Below, piece after piece: positions 5,574 to 63,689 of a stretch of 64,000 bases of DNA. A program made the translations under genes and the position numbers. Position 1 is the first letter of the stretch. Every line of letters begins with the position of its first letter. The DNA lies in the NCBI GenBank assembly GCA_964016885.1, contig OZ024742.1, positions 220,534,001 through 220,598,000 of the forward strand, written 5' to 3'. Source of the stretch: Eledone cirrhosa. Taxonomy: Eukaryota. The notes below the pieces were generated by a model that was not told where the DNA came from, did not search any database, and worked only from the letters and a program-made list of their open reading frames with translations.

Positions 5574-5679
5574 TATAGTTAAAAAGGGAAGGTAAAAATG
5601 CACTGCAGTATATTTAAAGTTTATTCTTTCTTTAATCCAACAGAATGAATAATTTTATAATTGTTGCATTAAATATAAT

Positions 5680-5865
5680 TGTTTCTACTTTTGGCACAAG
5701 GCCAGCAATTACCCAGTGTATTACTGGTACTTTATTTTATCGACCCTGTAAGGATGAAAGGCAAAGTTAACCTCGGCGGGATTTGAACTCAGAATGGCAA
5801 GGGCCGTAACTCTATGCGTCAAGGCATGGCATCCGACCCTCTACCGTTACTGCCAATCCACCGCC
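5680..5865 (-). mobile_element. full-length young tRNA-derived SINE, subfamily A (Meta-like core, tentative)
   Basis: A box TGGCAGTAACGG, B box GAGTTCAAATCC, core GCCTTTCATCCTTAC.GGGTCGATAAAA, 3' end AGAAACA; 20-bp TSD 5660-5679 / 5866-5885. Confidence 0.9.
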
Positions 5866-6473
5866 ATTGTTGCATTAAATATAATCAGTTTCGATTGGTA
5901 TAACAATCTTATAAATATTTTATATTAAATATCAAATATTCAAAAGAATGTTTTTTCATGTATTCTGTGAGCATTTCGAATATATGTGAGTTTTCTGTCA
6001 AAATTTCTCCTTATATATATGTTCTTTATGAAGGTGTGGTAGTGGAGTTGGAGGTCGGATTCAGCAAGTCAGAAATTCAATTGAATTCACTTGGTTAAAA
6101 ATAAAAAATGTTCTAACCATTCATACTAATGGACCAGAAGGCATTTTTAATGTGTGTGGGTGGGAGGTATTAAGGTGGGGTTCAATTGTGTCGAAAGGTC
6201 AGTTTAGGTGAGGATATAGAATTAATCTTTTGTTTTGTGGTGTGTGTGTGTATGTATGTGTGTATGTATGTGTGCTTTTACCCAATAATTAGTCATAGGA
6301 TTCCATGAACAAAATATTTACAGCCAATCTCTATTGCTATTTAGAGACACATTTCACACACAACTAAAAAACAACCAGAAAAGGTGCCTGAATGATTGCT
6401 TTATCTTATGACAGGAAAACCTTGATATACTCACAGAATTAACAGCAAAATCCAATTCCCAATGGAAATTAAT

Positions 6474-6574
6474 TGTTTCTACTTTAGGCACAAGGCCAGC
6501 AATTACCCAGTGCATTACTGGTACTTTATTTTATCGACCCCGTAAGGATGAAAGGCAAAGTCAACCTCGGCAGG
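6474..6574 (-). mobile_element. 5'-truncated copy of the young SINE
   Basis: near-identical to the 3' half of 5680-5865; abuts the Penelope relic. Confidence 0.85.
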
Positions 6575-7460
6575 TTATACCAAGGAACTAGTCTTTTTAG
6601 AAAACAACATTTTTTAAATGGAGGCAAGAATAGAAAGAGACATTTTTTATAAACCCACAGACTCCAAACAGTACCTTCTTTTTACATCGATTCACCCAAA
6701 ACACTCAAAACTGAACATTCCTTTTAACCTAGCTAAAAGGATTTGCACTATAGTATTGGACCCAGTCAAACGTGAGTAAAGACTGGATGAACTCAAAAAT
6801 ATACTCACCCAAAGAGCATTCCCACTGAGCGTGATCACCAACAAAATAGAAAGGGCTAAACTTATAAATCCAAGAGCTCAGGACAACAAAAATCAAAACC
6901 AAGGAAAATGTTTTACCATATATACAAAACCTTCCTATTTTATATGAAGATGAAAAAATGAAAAAAATTCAAGAAACACAAAATCATCAAGAGTAAAAGT
7001 CAGCCTAAAACACTAAACCAAATCCTTACTGGGACAAAAACCCATGAACAAATCTCCAACCGCACTGTTACAAAATGTGGAAAAACACATTGTAGTACCT
7101 GTTTACACCTATTTGAAGGACCAGAATTCAAATTTAAGGATGGACAATCCTTCAGAATAAAAGAACATTTCACCTGCAACTTGGAAAACCTAATCTATGT
7201 GATTACACACTGTGGATGTCTGCAAAATTAAATAGGACTGGCAGGAATTTCACTACACAAAAAATGACCATATACTGCCAACAAATCCACAAATGAAAAC
7301 AAGAGAAAATCCTTTTTAAGCAGCCACATTGCAACATGTGCAAGATTAGATATACCCAACTTGAAAATTTTCCCAGTCAACAAATGCTCAGACTCTTTCA
7401 CTCAACAATAGAGAATAAAGAAAAACAATTCATTAACAACAAATACAAACCACAATAGCC
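6575..7460 (+). mobile_element. Penelope-like element relic (RT thumb plus GIY-YIG region)
   Basis: translates FYKPTDSKQYLLFTSIHPKHSKLNIPFNLAKRICTIV, then KCGKTHCSTC..FTCNLENLIYVITHCGC; stops and frameshifts. Confidence 0.8.
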
Positions 7461-7819
7461 GGGAAGCTGGTAGTAAATATATATATATATATATAGTGTC
7501 ACAACAAAAAACATCCAGCTGACACTGTAAAGTGGTCATGTAGATGTCACAACAAAAAGTACCTAGCCCGTAAATATGGTTGGCATGAGAAGAGCATCCA
7601 GCTGTAGAAACCAAGCCAAAATCACTTCTATATAAGTAAGACATGGTCACCTGACCTGGCCTCTTTCACAAGAGAACAACTTGTCTAACCCATGCTAGCA
7701 TGGAAAATGGACATTAAACAGTAATGATGATGATGATTATATATATATATTATGTGGTGCAGGCTGACCTGTAGAGTTGAACCTCCCAAAGGATTGATTG
7801 AGTGGTGATATGTTATATG

Positions 7820-8089
7820 CAGGGGTGGATTTAGACCTTGGGGGCCTCCTCATACACAAAAAAAATAGAATACACACAGTACCCCCAATTTTAAATATCA
7901 AAGTAGCTTGGCACAAGTAATTGGAATTGTTATACATACAGGTATTAAATTCAAAAATTCTAACCATCCTAAAACTAAAAAGCCCAACTGAGGGCACAAA
8001 TAAATTGCTATAGCCATCACTAGTATGGCATCCGACTGCATGAGGCCCAGGGCAATTGCCCCCCTTTGCCCCCATTAAATCCAGCCCTG
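7820..8089. mobile_element. hAT-like MITE
   Basis: TIRs CAGGGGTGGATTTA / TAAATCCAGCCCTG; degenerate 8-bp TSD GTTATATG / GCCATATG. Confidence 0.7.
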
Positions 8090-8851
8090 GCCATATGCCA
8101 TACAATAGAGGACTTGCCTTCCCAACTTGTTTCCTATTCATTGCCTACTCCTCTGTCCCTCTTCTCCACCTTAATCCTTCTATCCTAGATATATTCTCCT
8201 TTCACTTATCTAAGTCCTCCACCTTAGTCTCCTTCCCCTTACATCCTTCACTGATCCATCCTTGTTCAACATATGCCAGTATGAAAGAAAGATGTACTCC
8301 TTACCACACATTGACAGAACCGTTAGACAAAATGCCTTGCTATATTTAACTTACAGATCTTTACTGCCATAGTTCAAATCTCACCAGGGTCAACTTTGCC
8401 TTTTATTCTTCCAGAATTTAATTGGTTGATCTCTTACCCTGAATTTCTTAACTTGGGACTATGTTAGAAACAATTGTGGCTGATCACCCAGACCCAGCCA
8501 CTGAAAGAGACAGGGGCCTTCTGTAGAATGTAAGCACCAAACAGCTGTAAAACACAGCAAGGAATGGGAGACAAAGAAAACATACCTAATCAACCTTCCA
8601 CTTGTAAAAGAATGTGATAAAGTCACTACTACTATCACTCCAACCAATACATAAAAAAGCAATGCAGCAAAGTATGACAACAACAACAACAACAATAACA
8701 ACACTAATACCCCTAAAACAACAGAAAATAACAAGTATAGCAAAGGCAAGAACAGTAACAACAAAACAAACAATGCCACTGCAAATTTCATGGAGAATGA
8801 TTTACCCTCACCCATTGCTCTATCTTCCTTAGTAGTTTACCTCTGCTGGGG

Positions 8852-12805: not shown

Positions 12806-14532
12806 CAATGGTCACTTTTCGGAATCTTTCAACATCATGTGCTTGGTTTGCCAAGGTTGTCCCCTCTCCTTCCTGTTGTATGTATTGACTCTAGAGCCAT
12901 TATTGCACAAACTGGGGACATTGAGGGGTATCCCGCATGAACTAGGATGCAGGAGAACCATGTTAGCTTATGCCTATGATGTCACTGTAGTGGTGTCAAG
13001 TGCCAAACACATCGAAGCAATCAGTACTGCTCTGAGAGAATAGGACGCGGTGACAAGCAAAATTTAACCAGGAAAAGTTGGTGGGCCTGCGGCTCGGCAC
13101 CTGAAGAGGCAAGACCATGTCATCCAACAGCATCATTGGGCACTGGATGGACAGACCAGTTAAATTGATAGGCATTTGGTTTGTTCCGGACCTCCAGATG
13201 GACAAAAACTGGGACACGGTGACAAGCAGGGGGGGGGGGAGGGGCACTCTCACACAGATATGGGCCAAGTGGAAGCTAACCCTGAAAGGTCAAGCGAAGG
13301 TGGCAAACACGGACATTGCATCTATCAGCTACTACTGCCTGACTGTTGTGCCTTGTCTAAAGCCTCATATGACTGGACTGGAGCATTTACTCTTTCAATT
13401 TTTGTGGAAAGGACATGCTCCGATTTCCAGGCAGTCCATCTGTTGTCAACACCTGCTGCGTGGAAGACAGGGCATACTGTGACTGATAGTGAGCAGACAT
13501 GCGCTGAGGCTACAACAGCTCCAGCTTTTCTTGAACAGTGAATAGGTGAGATCACCATCCGCTAGGCATGTTTTTCCCCAGCTCATCTCTTTGGTGAAGC
13601 TGCTTCCTGGGTCAAGCGGAGACCTACAAAAAGCATGTGGAGGCTAGTATCTCTTCAGGTGCTCACAGCCCTCAACCAATTGGGCACTATGATCGTTGGA
13701 AACTCCACCTTGGTGTTCTATAGAAGGTTAGTGATGGATAAAAGAAAGAATATTCTTGGGAAAAATCTGGCATTCAACGAAAATCAAATAGCCATTCTCT
13801 TCCACAGGATTTTTGGTCCAGTGCCTATGGACAACTTCTAGAAATCCCTGGCCTGGCAGCGCTACCATGGTGCATTGCCTATCCAAGATAAACTCTACAA
13901 CCATGGAAGTACCATCAGTTGGGCATATCCAAGATGTGTGCAGGGTGACAAAACTGTCAGGCATGCTCTCGTCCAGTGTCTGAGTATCACTGGCTTGTGG
14001 GTTTATCTGGAACACCTGCTGTTACATGTGGGATGGATCTGATTGTCAACTGAGTCTATCGTCAAAATCGCCCCGCCACCCTTCCTTAGTTGTTTTTGTC
14101 TGTCTGGTGACCATGGCAAAAGAGGTCATATGGTAGATGAATCTGAACAGGCTGAAGATGGGCACTTTCTTTTTCGGTGACCCTCTGATTAACTTCTTCA
14201 GGTTTCACTTGAAGAGGAAAATCAGGATGGAGAAGGAAGTGTTGCCTTCAAAGCAATTTGTTGAAAGGTGAATGAAAGCAGCAAGAATGACCCAAGTGTA
14301 TGAGCCTGCTTTGACCATGTGCCTGTAGATTGAGGGAGAACAACTGGGAGGAAACACTTGCATGGCGGTCAGGGTGACTGGGGCTTTTGTAAGCTTTCTC
14401 CCCCTATTGTGGAATTTTCTTTTCTTTCTACTTTTTTTTTTTTGTTACATCCATTGTTTTTGTTTTATACTCATTCTTACACACAGAAACTCTATACTGT
14501 CCTTAATGTATTTTTTTGTAAATAAAGGAAAC
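12806..14532 (+). mobile_element. 5'-truncated Tx1/L1-like LINE, copy 1 (degenerate)
   Basis: QGCPLSFLLY, AYAYDVT, VKLIGIWF; homologous to 58365-59978; ends AATAAAGGAAAC followed by (ATT)n. Confidence 0.85.
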
Positions 14533-14547
14533 ATTATTATTATTATT

Positions 14548-14956
14548 GTTCTTTGAGTCTGAGTCATTGATGTTATTTAACTGGAAAGTTTGTTGAAATG
14601 AATATCAATCCGCTACCTGCAGCCTCAGATATTCAGGACGTATCGGAGGGTTCTTGCTGTTCCCAGCAAGCATGCCTTTTGAAGTGTTCCAAAAAGCGGG
14701 GCTGGACTAATCTTCTTTAACCATCCTTGGAAACTCTTTAAGATAGTACCTAGTGCGCCTATGACAATCGAGACAACCTTGACTTCATGGCGGTTCCAAA
14801 TCCTTTTTAACTCCCACTTTCATGTCTGTGGATCTCTAAATTCCGTTTTCTTAAAGAAGGTACTATAAAGGGATTTTTCATGAAGGTTGCTCTTCCTCCT
14901 TGTTGTTATTTCCTCCTTGGACATCCCCTGGTCTATTGTCTTCTTCTTCAGTACAA
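14548..14956 (-). mobile_element. internally deleted R4/Dong-like retroelement 3' fragment
   Basis: near-identical to 56582-56850 joined to 57342-57477; (ATT)n on both sides. Confidence 0.85.
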
Positions 14957-15015
14957 TTATTATTATTATTATTATTATTATTAGTAGTAGTAGTAGTAGT
15001 AGTAGTATTTATTAA

Positions 15016-15236: not shown

Positions 15237-15321
15237 ATTGTTATAATTATTACTATGAGTGAATTGACCTAACTTAGGAATTGTTATCCTCATCATTTTG
15301 ATCTGCTTTCTTTTATTACAG

Positions 15322-15516
15322 GTACTGGGAGTGGTGATGCTTGCTTTAGGAATCTATCTGCAGATATCTGAGGCAGCCAACTATATGGCAGTTCTAACGA
15401 AAGTGAAGTTCACTGTAACGGTTTCTTTATTGGTTGCAGCTGGTGTTGTTACCATTATTGTTTGTATACTTGGCTTCTGTGCTGCCTTCCTTGAGAGTCA
15501 CTGCTTGTTAATCTTG
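15322..15516 (+). CDS. tetraspanin coding exon 2 (end of TM1, small loop, TM2)
   Basis: ttacag| VLGVVMLALGIYLQ...ILGFCAAFLESHCLLIL |gtaaag; 195 nt, phase 0; matches the GCxGAxxExxCLL-type motif. Confidence 0.95.
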
Positions 15517-15541
15517 GTAAAGAACATGTTTTCCCTTTTCA

Positions 15542-15545
<4 letters not shown>

Positions 15546-15629
<84 letters not shown>
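15546..15629. repeat. (CT)n microsatellite
   Basis: pure CT run. Confidence 0.95.
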
Positions 15630-15633
<4 letters not shown>

Positions 15634-15706
15634 ATATATATAAACACACACACACACGCGCATGTACACATGCACATATCTATGTATATATATATATATA
15701 TATATA

Positions 15707-17078
15707 CTAGCTGGCCCGTCCGGCTGGCGCCCGGCTAGGTTTACCGGCATTTTATCTTTTCAGGAATCCACCCTACACTCTAGTGTAAAGATACTGCATG
15801 CCCTCTCAAGTCAGGGAGGTGGGGGTTAACGTGCTCTGATGTTGGGTTTGAATAGTTTTTAGGATTCCCCAGTTCAGCAGCTAGTACATTAAAGAAAATT
15901 GATAGTTACAACAATAAAGGCTGAACAGAGAACAAATTTTTTAACAAACAATAATTTGTACAACCATAATGGAAATTCCAAGTAACAGAAAATATTTAAA
16001 TTACATTGTTAGAGCCTCAGAGTATACAATACTTTTTGTTTGGCCCGCCGGAGTAAAGATTAAGAGATTGTTTGGCGAGCTAACCCTAGAGCATCCTACA
16101 TACAATTGACCGTGGGAGAATCACTGATTTCGTAGCTCATCTCGCGGAGAAGCTCTGTAGACGTTCACTGCTGGGCACTCCTATCAGGAGCAGGTAAGCT
16201 GTAGTGACTTAGAGGCCTACCACCAATTTCCAGGACACTGTTTTCAAGACAAATGAGCGCCTCATTGAAAACGACATCGTATGTTATGTTCGGATTGTGT
16301 CTGCGTGTGCGGTGGAGGATGTCCTCAGCTAGACTTTCGCGGTGGTTGTTCCACAGTGCGAGAGGGTCGGCGAGATCTCAGTTGTGCAGCATAATAGCAA
16401 AAAGTTTTCGCAGCTGAGAAGGGACTTTAGCAGTTGCTGCTTCTTGCAGGGTGAGGTGCCAATGGCTGTCATCGTGTAACATACCACGCATCTGGCAAGC
16501 CAAACGGTAAGTGGAACATTGATGGGCATTAGATCTACCAACTCAGATCTTGGAAAGACTGTGGTCCTCTAACCTCGAACAGTAACAATGACGATAAGCC
16601 GTCTGTGCTTTCATGAAATAAATAGGTTTTTGTTTTGTGTATGCAAAAATATCTGTACACGAATATATATATTAAAATAACAGATTAAAGTTTGAGCAAA
16701 GAATCGCTGCTTTCACCCTTAACAGGATCTTGAAAATAAAAAAATCCGTCTGTGAATGCAGAAGTAAATATTTCGAAAAACGTTATCTAATGCAAACAAC
16801 CAGACATACATAGACTAAGAAAAAGAGGGGAATGTTGTGCGACGTCATAAGAAAAGGTGAGGAATGACGTATAACCGGAAGTGTTGACATTTGAAATTTT
16901 AAAGAAGCGAATATTTAAATAATGTCTTTAATCTTTTAACAAAATTCAGTAGACAAAAATACCCTCACTTTTTTACTTGGAAAGATTTACATCTATGGTG
17001 CAAATTTGGTGGTGTTTGGTCCAGCCGTTTGGTGGAAAGTTTGTTACCTACATACGGCCGTCAGCTTTATAGTATAGA
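15707..17078 (-). mobile_element. complete non-autonomous Helitron (internally deleted RepHel)
   Basis: 5' TCTATACTATAAAG; 3' GC-rich hairpin plus CTAG; inserted between A and T; retains STYRLACQMRGMLHDDSHW..QLRKLFAIML and FSHGQLYVGCSRV..TKSIVYSEAL*. Confidence 0.9.
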
Positions 17079-18129: not shown

Positions 18130-21100
18130 TGGGTTGACAACCATCCATACCACATCCCTTTCTTCTTCCTAACTAAGACCCATCTTAACAACTCCCACAT
18201 GGAAGCTAAAATGAAGGTGAGGAATTTTACAACCATCTGCGCAGATCATGCCAGCAGAAGGAAGGGAGAAATTGCCATTTTCCTGCATGATTCCTTTACA
18301 GCAGATGGATGTACCATATTATCCAATAGCTACTGTGAACAAGTTACCACGCACAACAAAGCCAATGATTTGATAGTAGTTGGGCTCTATAGGCTACCCC
18401 AATCACCCTTACCATGCTTTAAAGAATGCCTCAACAACATTAAGTGTTTTATACAACATTGCCATTCTGGTAATATACTTATGATGGGAGATTTTAATCT
18501 ACCCTGTGTTGATTGGTCACAAACAGTTTGAAACCAGGTACTTCCACCTCAACCACTGTCAAAGCAGCAGGAGAATCACTACTCGACTTCATGGATGAGT
18601 TTTTTCTTGTCCCAACTTGTCCTTGCACCAACAAGATATCAGAAAAAACATTTTGGACCTAGTGTTTAATAACCACACTAACTATGCACAATACTTCAGT
18701 GGAAAAACCCTTCTCTCTGATTATGAGATGGTACTCTGTAACCTGAGATCCCACAAGCTGAAAGCTAAACCCAATGACTTCTCTCCAGCCTGCTCATTTG
18801 ATAACATGGATCTTCATAATGCCAACTAGGATGCAATCACTAACGATCTATCACATGTTGACTGGACATACATTTCCACCAACTTCAAAACATCCTGGCA
18901 GATATTTATAGACACTGTCACAAACATATGTGCAAAACATACCCCATCAAGATTTGTGAAAAAAACTAAGTGCAGAATCACCCAAAACAGAAAAACTTTT
19001 ATCTAAAATACTGCCAACAGTAACACACACATTTAACTGCTATTGCACACTCAAATTGAACAGCTAAGGAAGAATGGGCCATTAAGAAAATCAAACTCAA
19101 TCCCAAAGTGTTCTTTTCATTTGAAAAAAAAAAAACACGGTCACTGTCTCCACTGCTGGCCCTTTGATTGATGAAAATGAGACTCTCCAAGACAATGCTA
19201 AAACAATGGGTGAGATACTGCAAAATCAATACTACTCTGTTTTCAGCAATCCTGATATGGCTGATCTGGGCCCCTGATGTCTTAGCGGCATAAAACGAAA
19301 TTAAACACAATTCAGCAGTAGGCCCCGACAGGTTCCCTGCATGTGTTCTGAAGGTGCGTTGACACCAATTTGCATCTCCTCTTGCTAATCTGTGAAGGAA
19401 CTCACTGGATGCTGGCTATATACCTGAAAACTTCCTGTCCCAGTCTGTTTTTCCTGTTTTTCCTGTTTTTCCTGTCTGTTTTTTTTCAAAAAGGGAAACA
19501 AGCCCCTTGCAGTGAATTACTGTCTGATCTCACTCCCCTCTCATATCATCTTTGAGAGGGTGGTGAGATCATGAATAACTCACTTTTGTGAAAGCAACTA
19601 TCAGCTGAACTCCAAACAACATGGGTTCCGTAATGGAAGGGACTGCCTAATGCAGCTCCTGCATCATTCTGATGACATGTTAAGAGCTTTGGGAGAGGGA
19701 TCTTACACTGATGTCATATACCTGGATTTCAGCAAGGTCTTTGACTGGGTTGATCACAACATCCTATTGAAAAAACTATCCTGCATTGGTGTCTCTGGAA
19801 AGTTACTAAAATGGATCAAGTGTTTCCTGACAAACAGATCCCAACATATTGTAGTTGAAGAAGTACAATCAAGCCTAGCCAAAGTCAGTAGTGGTGTCCC
19901 ACAAGGCACTATGTTAGGCTCACTTCACTTCTCTTCATTATTTATATCAATGAGTGTGGATCAAGGGCGGTGGATTGGCAGTATTGGTAGAGGCTCGGAC
20001 GTCATGCTTTGACGCATAGAGTTACGGCCCTTTCCATTCTGAGTTCAAATCCTGCCGAGGTTAACTTTGCCTTTCATCCTTATGGGGTCGATAAAATAAA
20101 GTACCAGTAATGTACTGGTTAATTTCTGGCCTTGTGCCAAAAGTAGAAACAATTATTTATATCAATGACATTATCGACATCGATGTCGATAATGTCATTG
20201 ATATAAATAAGTAACATAAGACTCTTTGCAAATGATTCCTAGCTCCAGAAGGTCATCAATGGAGTGGGTGACCAGACATGCCTTCAATCAGATCTACTTG
20301 CTGTTATCCAATAGGCAGAAAATACTATATGCTGCTGAATGAGAATAAATTTGAACTAATCTGCTTTGGAAAAGAGGATACACTGAAACTATCATATTCT
20401 GTTCCCTCAGATGAAACCCTCATGTCATCCAACAACATCAGAGACCTGGGAGTAATTGTTGATAACAACCTAAGCTGGACTATATAAACAACAAAGTTGA
20501 CATAGCCCAAAGGGTGTGTTCTTGGATTCTCAGAACTTTCCAGTTAAGAAATATCCACACCATTATCCTTCTCTACTTTTGCCCAACCCTACATTAAATA
20601 GTGTTGTCCACTGTGGTCTCCCCACAGAAAACAAACTATTATGAAAATTGAACCACCTCAAAGGTCAATCACAAAAAAGATAGTTGGCATGTCAGGCCTT
20701 GACTATTTTAGTCGACTAGAAAAGCTCAAACTCTACTCTCTCCAATGCCATCGTGAGCGCTACATTTTCTGCATGATGTGAAAAATATTCCATCAGCATT
20801 GCCCAGATGATGTTGGCATCATCTTTAAAATACACCTAAAGCTTGGGCCCAGTACTATCTGCCCACAACAAAAATCAAACATGCAACTCATAACAACATT
20901 ATGACACAATTATTTCACCTCAATTGGTCCCACTCTCTTTAATATTACACCAAAACACATTAAAACAGAAACAAACCCCATAAAATCCAAAAGGTCTTTG
21001 GACAAATTCCATCAAGAAACTTGGATAAACCTCTAACACCATGATATGCCTCTGTAAACAATAACTCTCTACTTGAGTGGGCCATGGTATCCAAATCCTG

Positions 21101-21180
21101 ATTTGAAAGATTTGCAAGATGGTGTTATTAAGTTAGACATGGCCTGGATCAATACTGGCCGAAACCTGTCAAAGTTATTA
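18130..21180 (+). mobile_element. degenerate CR1-like LINE, copy 1 (APE plus RT)
   Basis: GLYRLP, MMGDFNLPCVDW, NILDLVF, DVIYLDFSKVFD, SGVPQGT, RDLGVIVD; the 5' part may extend to ~17150. Confidence 0.85.
19954..20151 (+). mobile_element. young SINE (subfamily A) inserted in the CR1-like RT
   Basis: full head, core and tail; 17-bp TSD ATTATTTATATCAATGA at 19937-19953 / 20152-20168. Confidence 0.9.
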
Positions 21181-21380
21181 AAGATATGTACATATATTTA
21201 TATATGCATATGTATACTGGATTTACTTCCATAAGCATAATTAGTTAGAAAGTGAAAACATTTAAACATATAAATAAGTAGATATATTATCTAAAAATAA
21301 AAAGAAAGAAATAGCTATATGTATGTAAATAAATAAATATATATGTATATGTGTGTAAATATAACTTCTATTTATTACAG

Positions 21381-28638: not shown

Positions 28639-28772
28639 AGTGCGCGCGTGTGTGTGTGTGTGAGTGCGTGTGCATGCGTGCGACAGTGTGTGTATAAGCT
28701 TGTATGGATATCTGTCTCGGTGTAGAATGGGAGGTTAAAGTGTGGTGCTACAGAAAGAGTGATATACATAAT

Positions 28773-28959
28773 TGTTTCTACGTTAGGCACAAGGCCAGCA
28801 AATTACCCAGTGTATTACTGGTACTTTATTTTATCGACCCCGTAAGGATGAAAGGCAAAGTTAACCTCGGCGGGATTTGAACTCAGAATGGCAAGGGCCG
28901 TAACTCTATGCGCCCGCCAAAGCATGGCGTCCGACACTCTACCGATACTGCCAATCCAC
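28773..28959 (-). mobile_element. young SINE (subfamily A)
   Basis: near-identical to 5680-5865; TSD ATACATAAT. Confidence 0.9.
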
Positions 28960-29369
28960 ATACATAATGAACAGATACAGATTTGTCATTAATAATTTCT
29001 TTTATATTTGATACAAACACAGGCAAACCACACACATACACAATGTTAATACAGCCCGACACACTTAGACAACCATCGCCAACAATAGACCATTCAACCA
29101 ATATATACGGTGATACACAAAAAATTAAAATCAACACTGACATATCCACATTTTTCTATATTTTATTTTCTAATCTATTTACTATTGTATTCCCCTGATG
29201 AAGGACTAATGTCCGATACGTTGAACATTTCTCTCTCTTTCGCCCAAATAGTGAACATAATAACACTAATTGTTTTTGTTTATATATATATAACAAAGTG
29301 TGGTAAGAAACAAGGTCGACAATAACGCACCAGATTACTCGATACTTAGGGCAGTAGAGTGGGTATATA

Positions 29370-30432: not shown

Positions 30433-30579
30433 AAAAGAGGAATCAGGTAAATATTGGAGTTGATTTAATCAGCTTTGTCCTTTTAAATGTGTTGGCCTTC
30501 TGCCTAAATATAGACATCAATATTGTGAATATACTTTAAATACTACGGGTAATATTAGATAATATTACATAGCTACAGT

Positions 30580-30703
30580 CCCTATACGATCTGAGTTCAA
30601 ATCCCACCGAGGTTAACTTTGCCTTTCATCCTTACGGGGTCGATAAAATAAAGTACCAGTAATGTACTGGGTGATTGCTGGTCTAGTGCCAAAAGTAGAA
30701 ACA
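30580..30703 (+). mobile_element. 5'-truncated young SINE (subfamily B)
   Basis: 16-bp TSD ATTACATAGCTACAGT at 30564-30579 / 30704-30719. Confidence 0.9.
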
Positions 30704-30755
30704 ATTACATAGCTACAGTAATTATAATTTTTCTTTTTTTAATTTTCATAATGCT

Positions 30756-45100: not shown

Positions 45101-48100
45101 ATAGTATCATATAGATGAGCATTGGTGCAATTGTCTATGGTCCCTGACATACAGTATCATATAGATGAGCATTGGTGCAATTGTCTATGGTCCCTGACAT
45201 ACAGTATCATATAGATGAGCATTGGTGCTATTGTCTATGGTCCCTGACATACAGTATCATATAGATGAGCATTGGTGCAATTGTCTATGGTCCCTGACAT
45301 ACAGTATCATATAGATGAGCATTGGTGCAATTGTCTATAGTCTCTGACATACAGTATCATATAGATGAGCATTGGTGCAATTGTCTATGGTCTCTGACAT
45401 ACAGTATCATATAGATGAGCATTGGTGCAATTGTCTATGGTCCCTGACATACAGTATCATATAGATGAGCATTGGTCCCTGACATACAGTATCATATAGA
45501 TGAGCATTGGTCCCTGACATATAGTATCATATAGATGAGCATTGGTGCTATTGTCTATGGTCCCTGACATACAGTATCATATAGATGAGCATTGGTCCCT
45601 GACATACAGTATCATATAGATGAGCATTGGTGCTATTGTCTATGGTCCCTGACATACAGTATCATATAGATGAGCATTGGTGCTATTGTCTATGGTCCCT
45701 GACATACAGTATCATATAGATGAGCATTGGTCCCTGACATACAGTATCATATAGATGAGCATTGGTGCTATTGTCTATGGTCCCTGACATACAGTATCAT
45801 ATAGATGAGCATTGGTGCAATTGTCTATGGTCCCTGACATACAGTATCATATAGATGAGCATTGGTGCTATTGTCTATGGTCCCTGACATACAGTATCAT
45901 ATAGATGAGCATTGGTCCCTGACATACAGTATCATATAGATGAGCATTGGTCTCTGACATACAGTATCATATAGATGAGCATTGGTCCCTGACATATAGT
46001 ATCATATAGATGAGCATTGGTCCCTGACATACAGTATCATATAGATGAGCATTGGTCCCTGACATATAGTATCATATAGATGAGCATTGGTCCCTGACAT
46101 ACAGTATCATATAGATGAGCATTGGTGCAATTGTCTATGGTCCCTGATATACATTATCATATAGATGAGCATTGGTCCCTGACATACAGTATCATATAGA
46201 TGAGCATTGGTGCAAATGTCTATGGTCCCTGACATACAGTATCATATAGATGAGCATTGGTGCTATTGTCTATGGTCCCTGACATACAGTATCATATAGA
46301 TGAGCATTGGTGCTATTGTCTATGGTCCCTGACATACAGTATCATATAGATGAGCATTGGTGCTATTGTCTATGGTCCCTGACATAGAGTATCATATAGA
46401 TGAGCATTGGTGCTATTGTCTATGGTCCCTGACATACAGTATCATATAGATGAGCATTGGTGCAATTGTCTATGGTCTCTGACATACAGTATCATATAGA
46501 TGAGCATTGGTGCAATTGTCTATGGTCCCTGACATACAGTATCATATAGATGAGCATTGGTGCAATTGTCTATGGTCCCTGACATACAGTATCATATAGA
46601 TGAGCATTGGTGCAATTGTCTATGGTCCCTGACATACAGTATCATATAGATGAGCATTGGTGCAATTGTCTATGGTCCCTGACATACAGTATCATATAGA
46701 TGAGCATTGGTGCTATTGTCTATGGTCCCTGACATACAGTATCATATAGATGAGCATTGGTCCCTGACATACAGTATCATATAGATGAGCATTGGTGCTA
46801 TTGTCTATGGTCCCTGACATACAGTATCATATAGATGAGCATTGGTGCTATTGTTTATGGTCCCTGACATACAGTATCATATAGATGAGCATTGGTGCAA
46901 TTGTCTATGGTCTCTGACATACAGTATCATATAGATGAGCATTGGTGCAATTGTCTATGGTCCCTGACATACAGTATCATATAGATGAGCATTGGTGCAA
47001 TTGTCTATGGTCCCTGACATACAGTATCATATAGATGAGCATTGGTGCAATTGTCTATGGTCCCTGACATACAGTATCATATAGATGAGCATTGGTGCAA
47101 TTGTCTATGGTCCCTGACATACAGTATCATATAGATGAGCATTGGTGCAATTGTCTATGGTCCCTGACATACAGTATCATATAGATGAGCATTATTGCAA
47201 TTGTCTATGGTCCCTGACATACAGTATCATATAGATGAGCATTGGTGCAATTGTCTATGGTCCCTGACATACAGTATTATATAGATGAGCATTGGTCCCT
47301 GACATATAGTATCATATAGATGAGCATTGGTGCTATTGTCTATGGTCCCTGACATACAGTATCATATAGATGAGCATTGGTGCTATTGTCTATGGTCCCT
47401 GACATACAGTATCATATAGATGAGCATTGGTGCAATTGTCTATGGTCTCTGACATACAGTATCATATAGATGAGCATTGGTGCTATTGTCTATGGTCCCT
47501 GATATACAGTATCATATAGATGAGCATTGGTCCCTGACATATAGTATCATATAGATGAGCATTGGTCCCTGACATACAGTATCATATAGATGAGCATTGG
47601 TCCCTGACATATAGTATCATATAGATGAGCATTGGTGCTATTGTCTATGGTCCCTGACATACAGTATCATATAGATGAGCATTGGTGCAATTGTCTATGG
47701 TCCCTGACATACAGTATCATATAGATGAGCATTGGTCCCTGACATACAGCATCATATAGATGAGCATTGGTGCTATTGTCTATGGTCCCTGACATACAGT
47801 ATCATATAGATGAGCATTGGTCCCTGACATATAGTATCATATAGATGAGCATTGGTCCCTGACATACAGTATCATATAGATGAGCATTGGTCCCTGACAT
47901 ATAGTATCATATAGATGAGCATTGGTGCTATTGTCTATGGTCCCTGACATACAGTATCATATAGATGAGCATTGGTGCAATTGTCTATGGTCCCTGACAT
48001 ACAGTATCATATAGATGAGCATTGGTCCCTGACATATAGTATCATATAGATGAGCATTGGTGCTATTGTCTATGGTCCCTGACATACAGTATCATATAGA

Positions 48101-49345
48101 TGAGCATTGGTGCAATTGTCTATGGTCCCTGACATACAGTATCATATAGATGAGCATTGGTCCCTGACATATAGTATCATATAGATGAGCATTGGTGCTA
48201 TTGTCTATGGTCCCTGACATACAGTATCATATAGATGAGCATTGGTCCCTGACATATAGTATCATATAGATGAGCATTGGTGCTATTGTCTATGGTCCCT
48301 GACATACAGTATCATATAGATGAGCATTGGTGCAATTGTCTATGGTCCCTGACATACAGTATCATATAGATGAGCATTGGTCCCTGACATATAGTATCAT
48401 ATAGATGAGCATTGGTGCTATTGTCTATGGTCCCTGACATACAGTATCATATAGATGAGCATTGGTCCCTGACATATAGTATCATATAGATGAGCATTGG
48501 TGCTATTGTCTATGGTCCCTGACATACAGTATCATATAGATGAGCATTGGTCCCTGACATATAGTATCATATAGATGAGCATTGGTGCTATTGTCTATGG
48601 TCCCTGACATACAGTATCATATAGATGAGCATTGGTCCCTGACATACAGTATCATATAGATGAGCATTGGTGCTATTGTCTATGGTCCCTGACATACAGT
48701 ATCATATAGATGAGCATTGGTCCCTGACATATAGTATCATATAGATGAGCATTGGTGCAATTGTCTATGGTCCCTGACATACAGTATCATATAGATGAGC
48801 ATTGGTGCTATTGTCTATGGTCCCTGACATACAGTATCATATAGATGAGCATTGGTCCCTGACATATAGTATCATATAGATGAGCATTGGTGCTATTGTC
48901 TATGGTCCCTGACATACAGTATCATATAGATGAGCATTGGTGCAATTGTCTATGGTCCCTGACATACAGTATCATATAGATGAGCATTGGTGCAATTGTC
49001 TATGGTCCCTGACATACAGTATCATATAGATGAGCATTGGTGCAATTGTCTATGGTCCCTGACATATACTATCATATAGATGAGCATTGGTGCAATTGTC
49101 TATGGTCCCTGACATACAGTATCATATAGATGAGCATTGGTCCCTGACATACAGTATCATATAGATGAGCATTGGTGCTATTGTCTATGGTCCCTGACAT
49201 ACAGCATCATATAGATGAGCATTGGTGCAATTGTCTATGGTCCCTGACATACAGTATCATATAGATGAGCATTGGTGCAATTGTCTATGGTCCCTGACAT
49301 ACAACATATAGATTAGTATTGGTACAATTGTCCATGGTTTCTGAC
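36114..49345. repeat. 50/35-bp tandem satellite, ~13 kb, intronic
   Basis: unit GACATACAGTATCATATAGATGAGCATTGGTGC(A/T)ATTGTCTATGGTCCCT interspersed with a 35-bp deletion variant; degenerate edges. Confidence 0.98.
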
Positions 49346-54125: not shown

Positions 54126-54159
<34 letters not shown>

Positions 54160-54174
54160 ATATATGTAGCTTTG

Positions 54175-56345
54175 ATTACTTTGATAGGTTTTGGCCAGTA
54201 TTGGCACAGGCCATGTCTAACTTAATAGCACCACCTGGCGAAGTCTTTCAAATCAGGATTTGGACACCATAGTCCACTCAAACAGAGAGTTATTGTTTAC
54301 AGAGGCATATCCTGGTGTTAGAGGTTTATCCAGGATTTCTTGAAGGAATTTGTCCAAAAACCTTTTGGATTTTATGGGATTTGTTTCTGTTTTAATGTGT
54401 TTTGGTGTAATGTTAAAGAGAGTGGGACCAATTGAGCTGAAATAATTGTGCCATAATGTTTGTTGTTATGAGTTGCAAGTTTGATTTTTGTTGTGGGCAG
54501 AGAGTACTGGGCCCAAGCTTTAGGTGTATTTTAAAGGTGATGCCATCATCATCTTGGCAATGCTGATGGAATATTTTCCACATCATGCAGATGGCATTGG
54601 AGAAAATAGAGTTTGAGCTTTTCTAGTCGACCCCCAATAGTCAAAGCCTCTCATATCGTCTATCTTTTTTGTGATTGACCTTTGAGGTGCTTCAATATTC
54701 ATAATACTTTGTTTTCTGTGGGGAGATCACAGTGAACAACAGTATTCAAGGGGCAGTCGGGCAAAGGTAGAGAAGAGAAGGTTAATGGTGTGGATATTTC
54801 TCAAATGGAGAGTTCTGAGAATCCAGGAACACATTCTGCGGGCCATGTCAACTTTGCTGTTTATATGAGTGGCCCAGCTTAGGTTGTTTTTGACAATTTC
54901 TCCCAAGTCTCTGATGTTGTTGGATGCCACGAGAGTTTCACCTGAAGAAAGGGAATATGGGAGTTTCAGTGCATCTTCTTTTCCAAAGTGGATTAATTCA
55001 AATTTATCCTCAATCAGCAACATATTGTTCTTTTCCGTGCATTGGATAACAGCAAGTAGATCTGATTGAAGGCATGTCTGGTCACCCACTCTATTGATGA
55101 CCTTCTGGAGCTAGGAATCATTTGCAAAGAGTCTTATGTTATTGTGTTGATGATGTCAATAATGTCATTGATATAAATAATTGTTTCTACTTTTAGCACA
55201 AGGCCAGCAATTACCCAGTGCATTACTGGTACTTTATTTTATCGACCCCGTATGGATGAAAGGCAAAGTCAACCTCGGCGGGATTTGAACTCAGATCGTA
55301 AAGAGACGTAACTATGCTGGAAAGCATGGCGTCCGACCCTCTACCGATACTGCCAATCCACCGTCATTGATATAAATAATGAAGAGAAGTGAAGTGAGCC
55401 TAACATAGTGCCTTGTGGGACACCACTATTGACTTTGGCTAGACTTGATTGTACTCCTTCAACTACAATATGTTGGGCTCTGTTTGTCAGGAAACACTTG
55501 ATCCATTTTAGTAACTTTCCAGAGACACCAATGCAGGATAGTTTTTTCAATAGGATGTGATCAACCCAGTCAAAGGCCTTGCTGAAATCCAGGTATATGA
55601 CATCAGTGTAAGATCCCTCTCCCAAAGCTCTTAACATGTCATCAGAATGATGCAGGAGCTGCATTAGGCAGTCCCTCCCATTATGGAACCCATGTTGGTT
55701 GGAGTCAGCTGATAGTTGCTTTCACAAAAGTGAGTTATTCATGATCTCACCACCCTCTCAAAGAATATATGAGAGGGGAGTGAGATCAGACAGTAATTCA
55801 CTGCAAGGGGCTTGTTTCCCTTTTTGAAAAAAAACAGACAGGAAAAACAGGAAAAACAGACTGGGACAGGAAGTTTTCAGGTATATAGCCAGCATCCAGT
55901 GAGTTCCTTCACAGATTAGCAAGAGGAGATGCAAATTGGTGTCGACACACCTTCAGAACACATGCAGGGAACCTGTTGGGGCCTACTGCTGAATTGTGTT
56001 TAATTTTGTTTATTGTCGCTAAGACATCAGGTGTGCCAAACGTTATGTCTGATATAGTGTGTTGGAGGTTAATATCACTGATACGGCCCAGATCAGCCAT
56101 ATCAGGATTGCTGAAAACAGAGTAGTATTGTTTCTGCAGTATCTCACCCATTGTTTTAGTATTGTCTTAGAGAGTGCCATTTTCATCAATTAGAGTGCCA
56201 ACAGTGCAGACAGTGGCCTTGTGATTTTTTGCAGCTGTTTTTTTGGTTATTGATGATGATCTTCATGCATTGCTAGAGGTTATATGTTTTTTATTCAAGC
56301 AGTGCGATAGCAGTCAAATGTGTGTGTTGCTGTTGGCAGTCCTAT
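54175..56345 (-). mobile_element. degenerate CR1-like LINE, copy 2
   Basis: inverted homolog of ~19010-21180; YLDFSKAFD, SGVPQGT. Confidence 0.88.
55182..55363 (-). mobile_element. young SINE (subfamily B) in CR1-like copy 2
   Basis: TSD TCATTGATATAAATAAT at 55165-55181 / 55364-55380. Confidence 0.9.
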
Positions 56346-56581
56346 AGTTTGTTAAATTTCTTTTTTCGTTGTAAAATTTTTTCTTTGTTCTTTTTATTTT
56401 TCTGATAATAGTTGATGACATTGAAACTGTAAGTTACTACTGGTATGGCAAGCGAGTTTATGGTATCAATCCTATTCCTTGCATTCAACTCTGTTCTTAA
56501 GATTGCTCTTACTCTGCAGTTACATTACTTCCTTATCCTTTCCGTCATTGTCGAGTGCTTCTTCTTCTTATTATTATTATT

Positions 56582-58316
56582 GTTCTTTGAGTCTCAGTCA
56601 TTGATGTTTAACTGGAAAGTTTGTTGAAATGAATATCAAGCCGCTACCTGCAGCCTCAGATATTCAGGACGTATCGGAGGGTTCTTGCTGTTCCCAGCAA
56701 GCATGCCTTTTGAAGTGTTACAAAAAGCGGGGCTGGACTAATCTTCTTTAACCATCCTTGGAAACTCTTTGAGATAGTACCTAGTGCACCATTGACAATC
56801 AGAATGACCTTGATTTCATGGCAGTTCCAAATCCTTTTTACCTTCCACTTTAAGTCCTGGTATCGGTTAATTTTCTCCCTCTCCTTTTCTTGCACTCCCA
56901 TGTCAAATGGGCAGGCTACATCTACAATCAGGCACAATCTTTTTTCCTTGTCCAAAACCACCAGGTCAGGCCTATTGTGTTCTAATTTCTTGTTCGTCTG
57001 TATCCTAAAATCCCATAGCACCTTCACCTGATCGTTTTCTATCACCGACTCTGGCTTATGCTCATACCACTTCTCAGAATGTGGTAAATTGTTTACTTTG
57101 CATAGATGCCAGTGGATCACCCTGCTTATCACATCATGTCTCCAGCCTTTATAGTGAGTCTGGGCTAGGTGTTTACATTCAGATACAATGTGAGCCACAG
57201 TCTCCTCTCTCTACACACAGTGAGCTAGCCTCCTCCTTGTCAATATGGTGTTTCACCCACTTCATTCTGAGGGCTTGCTCTTTCACAGCCATTAGCATTC
57301 CTTCTGTAGCTTTTACAAGGTCTCCTCTTTTTAACCAGTTACATGTCTGTGGATCTCTAAATTCAGTTTTCCTAAAGAAGGTACTATGAAGGGATTTTTC
57401 ATGAAGGTTGCTCTTCCTACTTGTTGTTATTTCCTTCTTGGACATCCCCTGGTCTATTGTCTTCTCCTTCAGTACAATTTTGAACATTAGTTCACTACTG
57501 TCAGTTACATATTTGTGCAGGTTGTTTTTCTCCATCTGAACACAGTCCTCTATGCTGATTAGACCTCTTCTACCTTCAGATCTCCTTAAGTAGAGTCTAT
57601 CGACATCACTCCTCTTGTGAAACATGTTGTAGATAGTCAATAGCTTCCTAGTCTTCCTATCCATTTCTTTTTGTTCAGCAACATTGCATTTCAGAATTCC
57701 TGCACTGTACCTAATAATAGACACAGCTCGGGAATTTACTGCACTTATGACCTTCCTACTATTTAGATGTGATTTTAATACACTCCTTACTCTCCTTATG
57801 TACTCAGATCTTATCAATTCCTTCATTTTTTTGTTCTTGATGTCATCTGCCTCCAGAACACCTAAATATTTGTATCCCTCTTCAGTGTCAATTTCCTTTA
57901 TCATCTCACCTGTTGGTACCTGGATTCCGTTGCTTCTGCTCAATTTACACCTCTTCATCACAAGGACTCCACACTTATTAATACCAAATTCCATGCATAT
58001 ATCATTGCTCAAAATACGTACAGTGTCAACAAGTACATCCAACTCCTTCTCACTCATCCCAAAGAGTTTAAGATCGTCCATGAAGAGAAGGTGGTTGATG
58101 GTAAGCTCTCCTTTTCCCCACTTGTATCCTGCTCTCACTTTTCGCAATATAATGGTCAGGGGTATCAGGGTAGAGACAAACAGCAGAGGGAACAAATTGT
58201 CTCCCTGGAAGATACCTCTCTTGATCTTCATGCCTCCCAAGGATTCTCCACCCGATGTTAACTCTGTTTCCCAGGACTTCATACTTTTGCTCAACAACTG
58301 TCTGATGTTATCTGCC
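56582..58316 (-). mobile_element. 5'-truncated R4/Dong-like non-LTR retrotransposon (RT, CCHC, RLE)
   Basis: GIFQGD, HLLFMDDLKL, YKYLG, RLYLRRSEG, AHIVSEC..RHD, RPDLVV..DVACP..EKINRYQDL, GALG; (TTA)n on both flanks. Confidence 0.92.
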
Positions 58317-58330
58317 ATTATTATTATTAA

Positions 58331-58364
<34 letters not shown>

Positions 58365-58366
<2 letters not shown>

Positions 58367-59978
58367 AAGCCGACGACATTACCATAGTGGTGTCGAATGC
58401 CAAACACATCAAGGTGATCGGCACTACACTAAGAGAATATGAGGCAGTGATAGGAGCAATGATTAACCAGGAAAAGTCGGTAGGCCTACAGCTCGGCACC
58501 TGGAGAGGCAGGTCCATGCTGTCCAACAGCATCATTGGGTGCTGGACGGACGGACCGGTTAAATTGCTAGGGATCTGGTTTGTTTCAGACCTCCAGATGG
58601 ACAAAAACTGGGACAAGGTGATGAGCAAGGTGGCCTCTCTCAAAATGGGCCGAGAGGAAGCTATCCCTGAAAGGTCGAGCAGAGATGGTGAATGCATACA
58701 TCACGTCCGTCATTTACTGCCGCCTGACCGTCGTGCCTTGTCCTAAGCCTCGTTTGACTGCACTGAAGTGTTTGTTCTTTCTCTTTTTGTGGAAGGGATG
58801 CGCTCAGATCATCAGGTGGTCCGTTTTCTGTCAACACCCGCTACGTGGAGGGCTGGGCATGCCGTGGTTGATGATGCGCAAACATGCGCTCAGGCTACGG
58901 CACCTCCACCTCTTCCTCGATGGTGATCAGGTGTGGTTGCCGTTTGCTAGATGCATATTTTCCCAGCTCATCTCCTTGATGGAGCTGTAGACCTGGGTCA
59001 AGTGAAGACCGAGAGGGAGCGCTTGGAAACTGGAATGTCTTCAGGTGCTTACAGCCCTCGACCAATCGGGCAATGTGATCGGGGGAAATTCCACCTCAGC
59101 GTTCTATAGGTTAGTGGCGGGAAAGAGTGGCAACGTCCTTGGGGAGACTCAGGGTATCGACGAAAATCAACTACTCAATCTCTTCGGGAGAACTTTTGGG
59201 CCGGGGCCCATGGACAACTTCCAGAAATCCCTGGCCTGGCAGGGCTACCGAGGAGCTTTGCCAGTTCGGGATAAACTCTACAGGCATGGAAGTGCCGTCA
59301 GCCGGGCATGTCCGAGATGCGTGCAGGGGGATGAAACCGTCCAGCATGCACTCGTCCAGTGTCCGAGCATTGCTGAGTTTTGGGTTTATGTTGAACACCC
59401 GCTGTCACGTGTAGGACGGATCCGGCTATCAACTGAGTCCATCGTGAGGATTGCCCCGCCCTCTTCCTTTAGCCGGGAAGGGCAGGCAGTTTTTATCTGT
59501 CTGGTGGCCATGGCAAAAGAGATAGTATGGTGGACGCGTCTGAAAGGGCTGAAGACGAGCACTTACCTCTTCGGTAATGCCCTGATAACTTTTTCAAATT
59601 TCATTTGTAAAGGAAAATCAGGGTAGAGAGGGAAGTGTTCTCTTCCCAGCATTTTGTTGAAAGATGATTGAGAGAGGCAAGCATAGCCTGAGTGAATGGG
59701 CCTGCTCTGAGTATGCGCCTGTAAATTGAAGGTGGAAAATTTGGAGAGGGCACTTGCCTTGGTGGTCAGGGTCACCATGGCTTTGTTTAATGGGCTTTCT
59801 CCACGAGTGTCCTTCAGAAGTCTCCCCCCTATTGGCGAATTTTCCTTTGTTTCTTTTTTGTCAGCTTCTTTGTTTTTTTTCTTTACATGCAGAAATACCC
59901 ATTTTTACCATCCTGTACCGTCCTGTGCTGTCCTTAATGTTATACTTTATGTCAACCCTCATGGTTAATAAAGAAACA
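58365..59978 (+). mobile_element. 5'-truncated Tx1/L1-like LINE, copy 2
   Basis: ADDITIVV, EKS..G, KLLGIWF, GGLGMP, CPRC..ETVQHALVQCP zinc knuckle; ends AATAAAGAAACA followed by ATTGTT(ATT)n. Confidence 0.9.
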
Positions 59979-61555: not shown

Positions 61556-61590
<35 letters not shown>

Positions 61591-62340
61591 TTATTTCATT
61601 GATAGCACTCCATGCAAGTTTAGTTTGTTTGTTGTTTTTTTTATTTAAGTGGACATTATGCAGTAGTTCTACTTTCTCCCTGGTGCAGCTTTCTTGTTCT
61701 TTGATATAAGTATGATCCAGATTCATTTGAGCTTCAACTATAAACTGTTTGTTTCTTTCAGTCAGATGGAGCATGTGTTTAGAATGGGCACTTTTGAATT
61801 CTTTCCTTTTCTTTACTACTTATTGGTTTTGCAATGAGATCTTCTTTGCTTTGTGCAGTCTCAAAGACATGTGCTGTTCTGCAGCCTTTTTATGTGCTTC
61901 ATTTATGTTTCCATACAGTGTGTTGGCAGAGTTACCTTGAGATTGTTCTTGAACAGCATGGTGTCTGTTACTAATTTCATCTGTGTCATTTTCCTTAGTG
62001 TTTTCATTTGTGTTTAGTGCAGACCAGTCAAAGGGAATTTTCTTTGTCTTGTTTGTTTTGTTACATCTAAGTAAATATGATCCTTGCTATGATAGGACGA
62101 TGATCTGAATCTAGTGGTAAGAAAGAGTTATAAGCTTCACAATTGATTGCACTATTTTTTACATTTATTATTTATTAAAATATGACCAAGTTAACTTCAG
62201 ATACCATTTGGATATTTAAATGGCCACAACTCTCCTAGTTTTATTAGTCAGGTTTTATTCATTTAAAATATCCAACAATAATTCCTCATTTCTGTCTGTT
62301 TTGTCATGAAAATTCTCCTGTGTTTTATGTGGAGTTCTAT
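60130..62340 (-). mobile_element. degenerate RTE-like LINE
   Basis: AAKIYNRMLL..NQNGFR, IDFKKTF, QGDTLAPYLF, RWLRF..HCWR..LLQWEP. Confidence 0.8.
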
Positions 62341-62388
62341 ACAGAATTGAAATATTATCAACAAGATGGACACACATATACAAATAAT

Positions 62389-62568
62389 TGTTTCTACTTT
62401 AGGCACAAGGCCAGTAATTACCTAGTGCATTACTGGTACTTTATTTTATCGACCCTGTAAGGATGAAAGGCAAAGTCAACCTCGGCGGGATTTGAACTCA
62501 GATCATAAAGGGACGTAACTATGCTGGAAAGCATGGTGTCCGACCCTCTACTGATACTGCCAATCCAC
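62389..62568 (-). mobile_element. young SINE (subfamily B)
   Basis: TSD ATACAAATAAT at 62378-62388 / 62569-62579. Confidence 0.9.
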
Positions 62569-62744
62569 ATACAAATAATATCAGGGGAAATAATCTTTGA
62601 GGCACCGAACCATGTAATTGTAAAATCTCTGAATTATTTCCCCTAAACTGTAAAGTCTAGACTAATGGAAATAAGATAGCATCTACATGTTTGCTTGACC
62701 TACTAGATATAGCAGCCAAATCTGGTGATGATGGTAATGATAAT

Positions 62745-63028
62745 TGTTTCTACTATTGGCACAAGGCCAGCAATTACCCAGTGCATTACTGGTACTTTAT
62801 GTTATCGACCCCGTAAGGTGATGGTGATGATAATTGTTTCTACTTTTGGCACAAGGCCAGCAATTACCCAGTACATTACTGGTACTTTATTTTATCGACC
62901 CCGTAAGGATGAAAGGCAAAGTTAACCTCGACGGGATTTGAACTCAGACCATAAAGGGACGTAACTATGCTGGAAAGCATGGCGTCCGACCCTCTACCGA
63001 TACTGCCAATTCACCGCCCTTCTGTGAA
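62745..63028 (-). mobile_element. tandem pair of young SINEs (one truncated, one full-length)
   Basis: three copies of the target TGATGGT(A/G)ATGATAAT bracket two SINE 3' ends. Confidence 0.88.
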
Positions 63029-63689
63029 GGTGATGGTAATGATAATGATGATTAGTATGATAAAGACAAATTTCTTCATCTTTATCTTCTCCTCATCATT
63101 TATTGCTTTTGAAAATAAAGATTATTACCACTGTTAAAAAAGTTTCGTTTCCCATAAGAACCTAAGAAATAAATGACATTTTGCTTATGAAATAACTTCA
63201 CTGAAATTGAGTATTTTCCATGAAGTTAGTGGGTGAGGGAAATATACGTGAAACTAAACTAAATAGCTGTAATCTAAATCACAGTAATTACGACAATATT
63301 GGTAAGAATAGTAATATTTATATTAACCAAACTGAACTTCTTAGTAACTCCCACTTCTATGCTAACACTAGTGCTAACACCAGTAATATTGTAACTAACA
63401 ACCAAAAAATGAACTACAAACTCCCAGCACATATAAACTTATCTATTCAGAATATAAATCTTACTGGAAGATCAACCAATGTAAATACGGATACTCCAGT
63501 AATCCACAATTATATACTCCAAACAAACAATGATATCTTATCTGTGTAAATATTATAAATTAATAAATAAAAATACAGATATCCTTGCTATGTTATATTC
63601 TTTCTGAGCTAGTGGTGTGCATTGACTGGTAATATGCCATACAGTTTCTCCATTCATGCCACAAATCCTACACTTATCACTTTCCTCTG

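Follow-up and report, generated by a model that had tools for sequence, protein, structure and literature searches.

A young SINE of Eledone cirrhosa and ATT-targeting Tx1-like LINEs share a target word and a short 3' end: a candidate SINE/LINE pair

Which long interspersed element (LINE) mobilises the young short interspersed element (SINE) found in eight copies in a 64,000-nt stretch of the Eledone cirrhosa genome (GCA_964016885.1, contig OZ024742.1, positions 220,534,001 to 220,598,000 of the forward strand; hereafter the window)? The SINE and the Tx1-like LINEs that insert at ATT have a target word and a 3' end of ~22 nt in common, and the protein of open reading frame 2 (ORF2) of an ATT-targeting Tx1-clade LINE quite probably copies the SINE in trans, a putative trans-mobilisation proposed from sequence comparison. 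The original prediction, made from the letters of this window, had proposed such a Tx1 as the partner; target, polarity, the ~22-nt end and overlapping ages all favour that choice.

The young SINE is short (~190 nt), non-coding and abundant, with target site duplications (TSDs) and 5' truncation; an exact count over the 3.0-Gb assembly finds 185,017 exact 3' tails. Its target was read in an unbiased sample of 119 pieces, each 10 kb long and taken from fixed coordinates (1.19 Mb), which held 109 young SINE 3' ends, 105 of them usable. ATTA comes next in 94/105 and ATTAT in 86/105, and genome-wide exact counts place ATTA directly behind 162,746 of the 185,017 ends (88.0%). Circularity was avoided by anchoring the TSD on its letters 6-13 only, with ATTA itself unused. 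Among the 37 copies that gave an anchor, the 5' TSD copy starts with ATTA in 31, compared with 0.87% of flank positions and 1/7 control anchors. Because ATTA recurs in the independently found 5' duplicate, it is part of the target and not of the SINE tail; the original prediction had staked itself on such an enrichment at the 5' copy. Exact TSDs of at least 8 nt (range 8-21 nt) flank 56/105 SINEs as against 1/105 controls. The base preceding the TSD is C or T in 50/56 and G in 0/56, and the insertion site consensus is Y^ATTAT. Copies followed by GTTA or CTTA (L017, L028, L039, L057, L058) repeat those letters in their 5' duplicate, which fixes the SINE end at AGAAACA, where it had been placed before.

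At the SINE 5' junction, ATTATT or TTATTA occurs in 50/105 (background 34/714). Three or more ATT units stand behind 10/105 SINE ends, near the share among all ATTAT sites (393/5,996). Each insertion regenerates ATTA behind the element, hence the chains of SINE on SINE and of SINE and Tx1: the end of an earlier element directly precedes 15/105 sampled SINEs, and SINE-Tx1 chains are common.

Re-reading of the window recovered all seven TSDs that had been listed for it, each with ATTA first in SINE sense. The young SINE copies are as follows.

5680..5865, minus strand: young SINE, TSD 5660-5679 (20 nt) and 5866-5885
6474..6574, minus strand: 5'-truncated eighth young copy, ATTA behind it, no readable TSD
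19963..20151, plus strand: full-length copy of 189 nt, TSD 19937-19953 (17 nt) and 20152-20168, hairpin TGGC-CTTGT-GCCA, loop-to-end distance 16 nt
28773..28959, minus strand: young SINE, TSD 28764-28772 (9 nt) and 28960-28968
30580..30703, plus strand: 5'-truncated young SINE, TSD 30564-30579 (16 nt) and 30704-30719
55182..55363, minus strand: young SINE whose host position is that of the 19963 copy, TSD 55165-55181 (17 nt) and 55364-55380
62389..62568, minus strand: young SINE, TSD 62378-62388 (11 nt) and 62569-62579
62745..63021, minus strand: single site shared by a full SINE (62835-63021) and a partial tandem copy (62745-62818), with TSD 62729-62744 (16 nt) and about 63031-63046

The candidate partner is represented in the window by two Tx1-like copies, whose ends at 59978 and 14532 read as originally described.

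58369..59978, plus strand: 5'-truncated Tx1-like LINE of subfamily A (end of the reverse transcriptase (RT), zf-RVT, 3' untranslated region (UTR)), hairpin AACC-CTCAT-GGTT at 59954-59966, (ATT)n on both sides
12988..14532 (5' limit approximate), plus strand: older Tx1-like fragment, 75% like the 58369..59978 copy, 3' UTR without the hairpin, followed by (ATT)5

A full-length copy elsewhere (L069 3835-9640, ~5.8 kb) has two ORFs, with an ORF1 of 513 aa. Its ORF2 carries RVT_1 (1.8e-23) and, as its C-terminal zinc knuckle, zf-RVT (1.1e-8); the apurinic/apyrimidinic (AP)-like endonuclease falls short of the cut-off (Exo_endo_phos, E=0.0069), with catalytic motifs visible in the alignment. Every ATT-family copy in the subfamily alignment contains stops or frame breaks. 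The best solved relative of the RT is human L1 ORF2 (E 2.5e-23, versus 4.6e-11 for R2), so the LINE can safely be assigned to the L1/Tx1 group; that it is Tx1 proper is likely. The nearest proteins (P0001-P0024) are unnamed ORF2s of ~1,150 aa from public assemblies, 36-46% identical and in a clade apart from the named Tx1s. A quick RT tree joins the LINE with such 1,150-aa proteins in a 25-row clade (100); two proteins named TX1 fall on its side of the tree, with a support of only 80. No poly(A) tail was present in the Tx1 copies read.

At least six Tx1 subfamilies occur: ATT is the target of A, B and C, (TATC)n that of D and E, and AATATTAAC that of F. FastTree places them in one clade (100) with D and E nested (98). 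The loop ahead of the endonuclease motif YLDR reads TNRIGS in Tx1-A and B and has other letters in D, E and F; in other LINEs with an AP endonuclease (APE), this loop sets target specificity. ATTA stands behind 10,679 of the 13,290 LINE ends matching the A/B pattern genome-wide (80.4%), a pattern that also takes in some TATC-family ends. The polarity is that of the SINE, as had been claimed for the window and as is borne out across the genome. Internal alignment breaks included, ATTATT or TTATTA marks 23/48 Tx1 5' junctions (background 34/714), and 31/46 Tx1 ends are followed by at least three ATT units. In L071, what appears to be a long duplication, made up of (ATT)4 and the start of an old SINE, lies on both sides of a Tx1 insertion; L071 was considered as a SINE-Tx1 template-switch chimera and is better read as this duplication, L046 is ambiguous, and neither was used.

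The shared 3' end is where SINE and LINE meet in sequence. The SINE ends TGGC-CTTGT-GCCW followed by AAAGTAGAAACA, Tx1-A ends AACC-CTTGT-GGTT followed by AATAAAGAAANC, and Tx1-B ends AGCC-CTTGT-GGCC followed again by AATAAAGAAANC. The two kinds of end align gap-free over ~22 nt, as a CTTGT loop in a short stem and then a spacer. Row ten of this alignment is a 9-base stretch of no relation to the others, and the invariant columns listed with it were set aside. A shared end of ~7 nt, AGAAACA, had originally been proposed; that figure came from the atypical LINE copy ending at 59978, and the match proper extends further. From loop to insertion point the distance is 16 nt in SINE and Tx1 (17 in Tx1-C), and the SINE holds it genome-wide, with 185,017 ends at 16 nt against 749 at 15 nt; 642 of those 749 likewise precede ATTA. 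The stems differ yet pair (C-G, G-C, G-C in the SINE; C-G, C-G, A-T, A-T in Tx1-A; C-G, C-G, G-C in B and C), and the CTTGT loop sits in one register across six Tx1 subfamilies and two SINE forms.

The second of these SINE forms is older and longer, with GCCTATATAAGAAACC or GCCTAAATCAGAAACC as its end and ATTA likewise behind it. Its terminal AGAAA(C/T)C is Tx1-like, family A ending AGAAA(A/G/T/C)C, and the tail match is strongest here: aligned with the terminal window of Tx1-B, the last 27 nt reach a score of 34 (rank 1/443; 3 of 60,000 background windows score as high), and with that of Tx1-C a score of 30 (rank 1/453). The young SINE tail scores 21-25 with Tx1-A to D, whereas the Dong-like LINE gives 12 and the CR1-like LINE 4. 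Could such likeness be convergence or chance in A-rich sequence, and the common target a mere reflection of AT-rich nicking? The match covers only ~22 nt, is partly A-rich, and the SINE hairpin is weak; yet 88% of insertions fall at one 4-mer with a background of 0.9%, and the loop is identical in letters and register in the six Tx1 subfamilies and both SINE forms, which leaves this explanation with next to no probability.

Ages overlap. The median best-pair identity is 93.8% for 73 SINEs and 96.2% for 23 Tx1-A pieces, and one SINE lies within a Tx1 body with the TSD ATTAAATTTGA (L062). Clustering of repeat ends in the 1.19 Mb (265 clusters) lists as ATTAT enders the older SINEs, Tx1-A, Tx1-C, a CR1-like LINE and several AT-rich unclassified repeats.

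The CR1-like LINE, a label which we assume for the window copies, is a rival on this count.

19127..21195, plus strand: CR1-like LINE, host of the 19963 SINE; related copy at 54158-56230, minus strand

It too closes with (ATT)n, in the polarity of the SINE (5,924 exact ends), has ATTA behind 28/30 ends, and might mobilise the SINE while ATTA arises by tail annealing. Its ATT behaves as a tail, though: 9/34 of its 5' junctions were scored as ATT, and removal of seven copies of one internal 3' duplication leaves 2/27, the background level. The tail score of 4 compares with 21-25 for Tx1, and the CR1-like hairpin has another loop. The junctions largely refute this partnership, which is very unlikely. 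In one CR1-like subfamily, ~110 nt of the 3' end are duplicated as a fixed feature (L233, L237, L242, L248, L249, L257, L159), and the (ATT)n tails of that subfamily supply SINE targets (L252, L254).

Two further LINEs deserve mention. The first appears in the window as fragments that we presume, from their motifs, to be Dong/R4-like.

56573..58320, minus strand: Dong/R4-like fragment sharing a microsatellite with the Tx1 copy, in opposite polarity, (TAA)n
14548..14958, minus strand: Dong/R4-like 3' fragment, tail-to-tail with the Tx1 copy

It abuts both Tx1 copies of the window, but its polarity, TAA, is opposite to that of the SINE, and its tail scores 12 (rank 141/1,721). Dong endonucleases are of a different type from that of Tx1. 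RTE, the second, is abundant and known for long TSDs, but its ends carry a different tail with (GAT)n. The SINE moreover lacks the clear T stretch 10 nt upstream that is described for RTE-related SINEs in the relevant part of PMC6007223. Either as partner is barely plausible. The original prediction had named a longer tail match to another LINE as a counter-indication; the RTE, CR1-like and Dong-like tails do not match. The RTE tail with (GAT)n also closes another abundant, SINE-like family (L083, L087, L104 and others), which forms a separate SINE/RTE pair. Tx1 and Dong-like elements lie tail-to-tail in one ATT/TAA tract in the window (14533-14547) and in L032, L035, L052 and L057, so that one microsatellite serves two unrelated LINEs from opposite strands. 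TAA-targeting Dong elements of the R4 clade have this microsatellite in common with the Tx1s described here, from which they differ in strand polarity and in an unrelated tail (PMC3812793, in part).

Several observations weigh against assigning the young SINE to Tx1-A, B or C. The tail match to Tx1-A is modest (rank 8/5,780 windows). The hairpin is possible but not favoured in the SINE, with a median predicted pair probability of 0.01-0.20 versus 0.78-0.96 in Tx1-A/B/C, and its fourth stem pair is T-T in 47/156 copies. No LINE with the exact SINE tail was found in the 654 kb or the 1.19 Mb screened. A preference for long ATT tracts is seen in Tx1 but not in the SINE. The tail of the TATC-targeting Tx1-D and E is nearly identical to the ATT-family tail, D even ending AGAAACA (3,041 exact D ends genome-wide), yet only 2 of the 185,017 SINE ends precede TATC and 32 precede NTATCT. 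The near-absence of TATC serves as a control, since the SINE goes with the ATT enzymes, but it also cautions that the tail by itself is not enough to select the partner. Lastly, sites 19937 and 55165 are one host position in two related CR1-like copies, so that of the seven ATTA sites first reported for the window all are real and at most six are surely independent.

Mobilisation of the SINE by the TATC-targeting sisters was thus considered and not seen. Tx1-D and E stack in tandem at (TATC)n, with a 3' hairpin as in the ATT families (L263-L269, L281, L282; L200-L224). In L279, AATATTAACCAAGA stands behind each of three Tx1-F ends and is perhaps a specific site in another repeat.

The two CR1-like copies are an inverted pair, 35 kb apart and 83-96% alike except for a ~600-nt tract at 97-100% that ends at the shared SINE site and looks like gene conversion. 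Independent parallel insertion at 19937 and 55165 was also considered, as the SINEs are 89.6% identical with subtype-like differences and different 5' joints. Since the hosts are 83-100% alike in patches, duplication with conversion is as likely, and no support was drawn from the pair.

Some of these same points would fit a true partner that is a low-copy or extinct LINE, most likely a Tx1 sister with a looser, ATTAT-level endonuclease, A, B and C being only its relatives. The SINE lacks the long-tract preference of A/B/C, its stem GGC/GCC is exact in no sampled Tx1 subfamily, and a family with at least six subfamilies was screened in 0.04% of the genome. SINE ends, however, outnumber all Tx1 ends 14 to 1 at an age similar to that of Tx1-A, and a SINE less strict than its Tx1 partner has a precedent in SINEU-1/2 (PMC4494074, in part). 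Such a partner is unlikely.

If an ATT-targeting Tx1 protein does copy the SINE, the established target-primed mechanism suggests how. The AP-like endonuclease of Tx1-A/B/C would nick the bottom strand at 5'-ATAAT^R-3', the RT would start 16 nt downstream of the CUUGU loop, having bound SINE RNA at this loop and the A-rich spacer, and a second nick about 8-21 nt away would produce the TSD. More speculatively, SINE RNA might read on into the AUUAU behind the element and pair with the nicked primer, locking the SINE to ATT enzymes. Read-through would be expected because the SINE has no internal T4 terminator (copy 19963), and such pairing would explain why TATC-cutting sisters do not use it.

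The head of the SINE contains TGGCAGTATCGG and GTTCAAATC, which resemble the A and B boxes as generally given; ARAGORN detected no tRNA in the SINE, and there was no Rfam tRNA match. Its centre resembles U2 snRNA, in the 5' part of the latter, at a sub-threshold level in Rfam (window 20067-20115; 14.8 bits, gathering 46, E 0.76), probably by chance. Membership in SINEU, defined by a U1/U2 snRNA-derived head, was rejected on this central, sub-threshold match. Membership in MetaSINE, with a 66-bp Meta domain after the tRNA head, was rejected after comparison by eye with the supplementary bivalve alignments of PMC4824008, and three 8-mers from the SINE centre are absent from that alignment file.

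Stringent recognition of a common 3' stem-loop has its model in UnaSINE1/UnaL2 of the eel. That pair differs from the present one in its L2 clade, longer shared tail, repeat tail and lack of a defined target. It is listed as a SINE/LINE pair in Table 1 of the review by Ohshima (2013, PMC3747384); the portion of this review available counts three L1-clade-tailed SINEs among >800 families, all in plants or algae, and its Table 1 has no Tx1 pair. ZmSINE2/ZmSINE3 with LINE1-1_ZM and SINEX-3_CR with L1-1_CR are likewise L1-clade pairs with a shared 3' end, and in the maize pair this end forms a hairpin whose loop is conserved and whose stem is compensatory; they differ in belonging to plants and algae and in having no sequence-specific target reported in that portion (PMC3747384). 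The closest precedent is SINEU, assigned to the Tx1-clade machinery of crocodilian Tx1-Mar through a common target preference, which the LINE follows more strictly than some of the SINE families do (Kojima 2015, PMC4494074, in part). SINEU has U1/U2 heads and a Mariner target, and for SINEU-1 no LINE with the same 3' terminus was found according to the same part of that paper, whereas the Eledone SINE has a tRNA-like head, a 5-nt target word and a shared 3' end. Kibi at (TC)n, Koshi at (TTC)n and the crocodilian (TTCC)n/(TTTC)n families are also Tx1-clade APE LINEs in microsatellites; the available parts of the two sources do not list (ATT)n, (TATC)n or AATATTAAC among such targets and name no SINE partner (PMC4494074, PMC3812793).

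The candidate pair is a variant within the known SINE/LINE partnership, for which the printed Tx1-SINE precedent (SINEU/Tx1-Mar) is a matter of target only. In the literature searched, neither a Tx1 tail on a tRNA-type SINE nor this target is on record; Repbase, Dfam, SINEBase, subscription journals and octopus repeat libraries lay outside that search and may name the SINE or its partner. The available part of an octopus paper (PMC13282606) mentions neither 'target' nor 'partner'. It is an evenly balanced proposition that this SINE is the first of tRNA type in an animal to carry a 3' recognition element derived from Tx1, that RNA recognition by target-specific Tx1 LINEs is of the stringent stem-loop kind, and that partner choice needs both the tail and read-through pairing to the target. 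This view of partner choice is suggested by the six sister Tx1 subfamilies, a natural panel in which a single tail goes with three targets.

The rest of the window holds a satellite array at 30757-35500 (29/58-nt unit), another at 36114-49345 (13 kb, short variable units) and an exon-like tetraspanin gene piece at 15268-15738 on the plus strand (Pfam E 3.7e-5). The repeat mix of abundant SINEs with RTE, Dong/R4-, CR1- and Tx1-like LINEs resembles that of octopuses, as far as the available parts of PMC13282606 and PMC8967140 describe it.

If the partnership is true, a pair that bears both signatures, target and tail, would show how Tx1 proteins recognise RNA, and it would account for where at least 185,000 insertions lie in the Eledone genome. 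Sister enzymes with one tail and different targets would separate RNA recognition from target choice, a distinction that bears on site-directed LINE tools.

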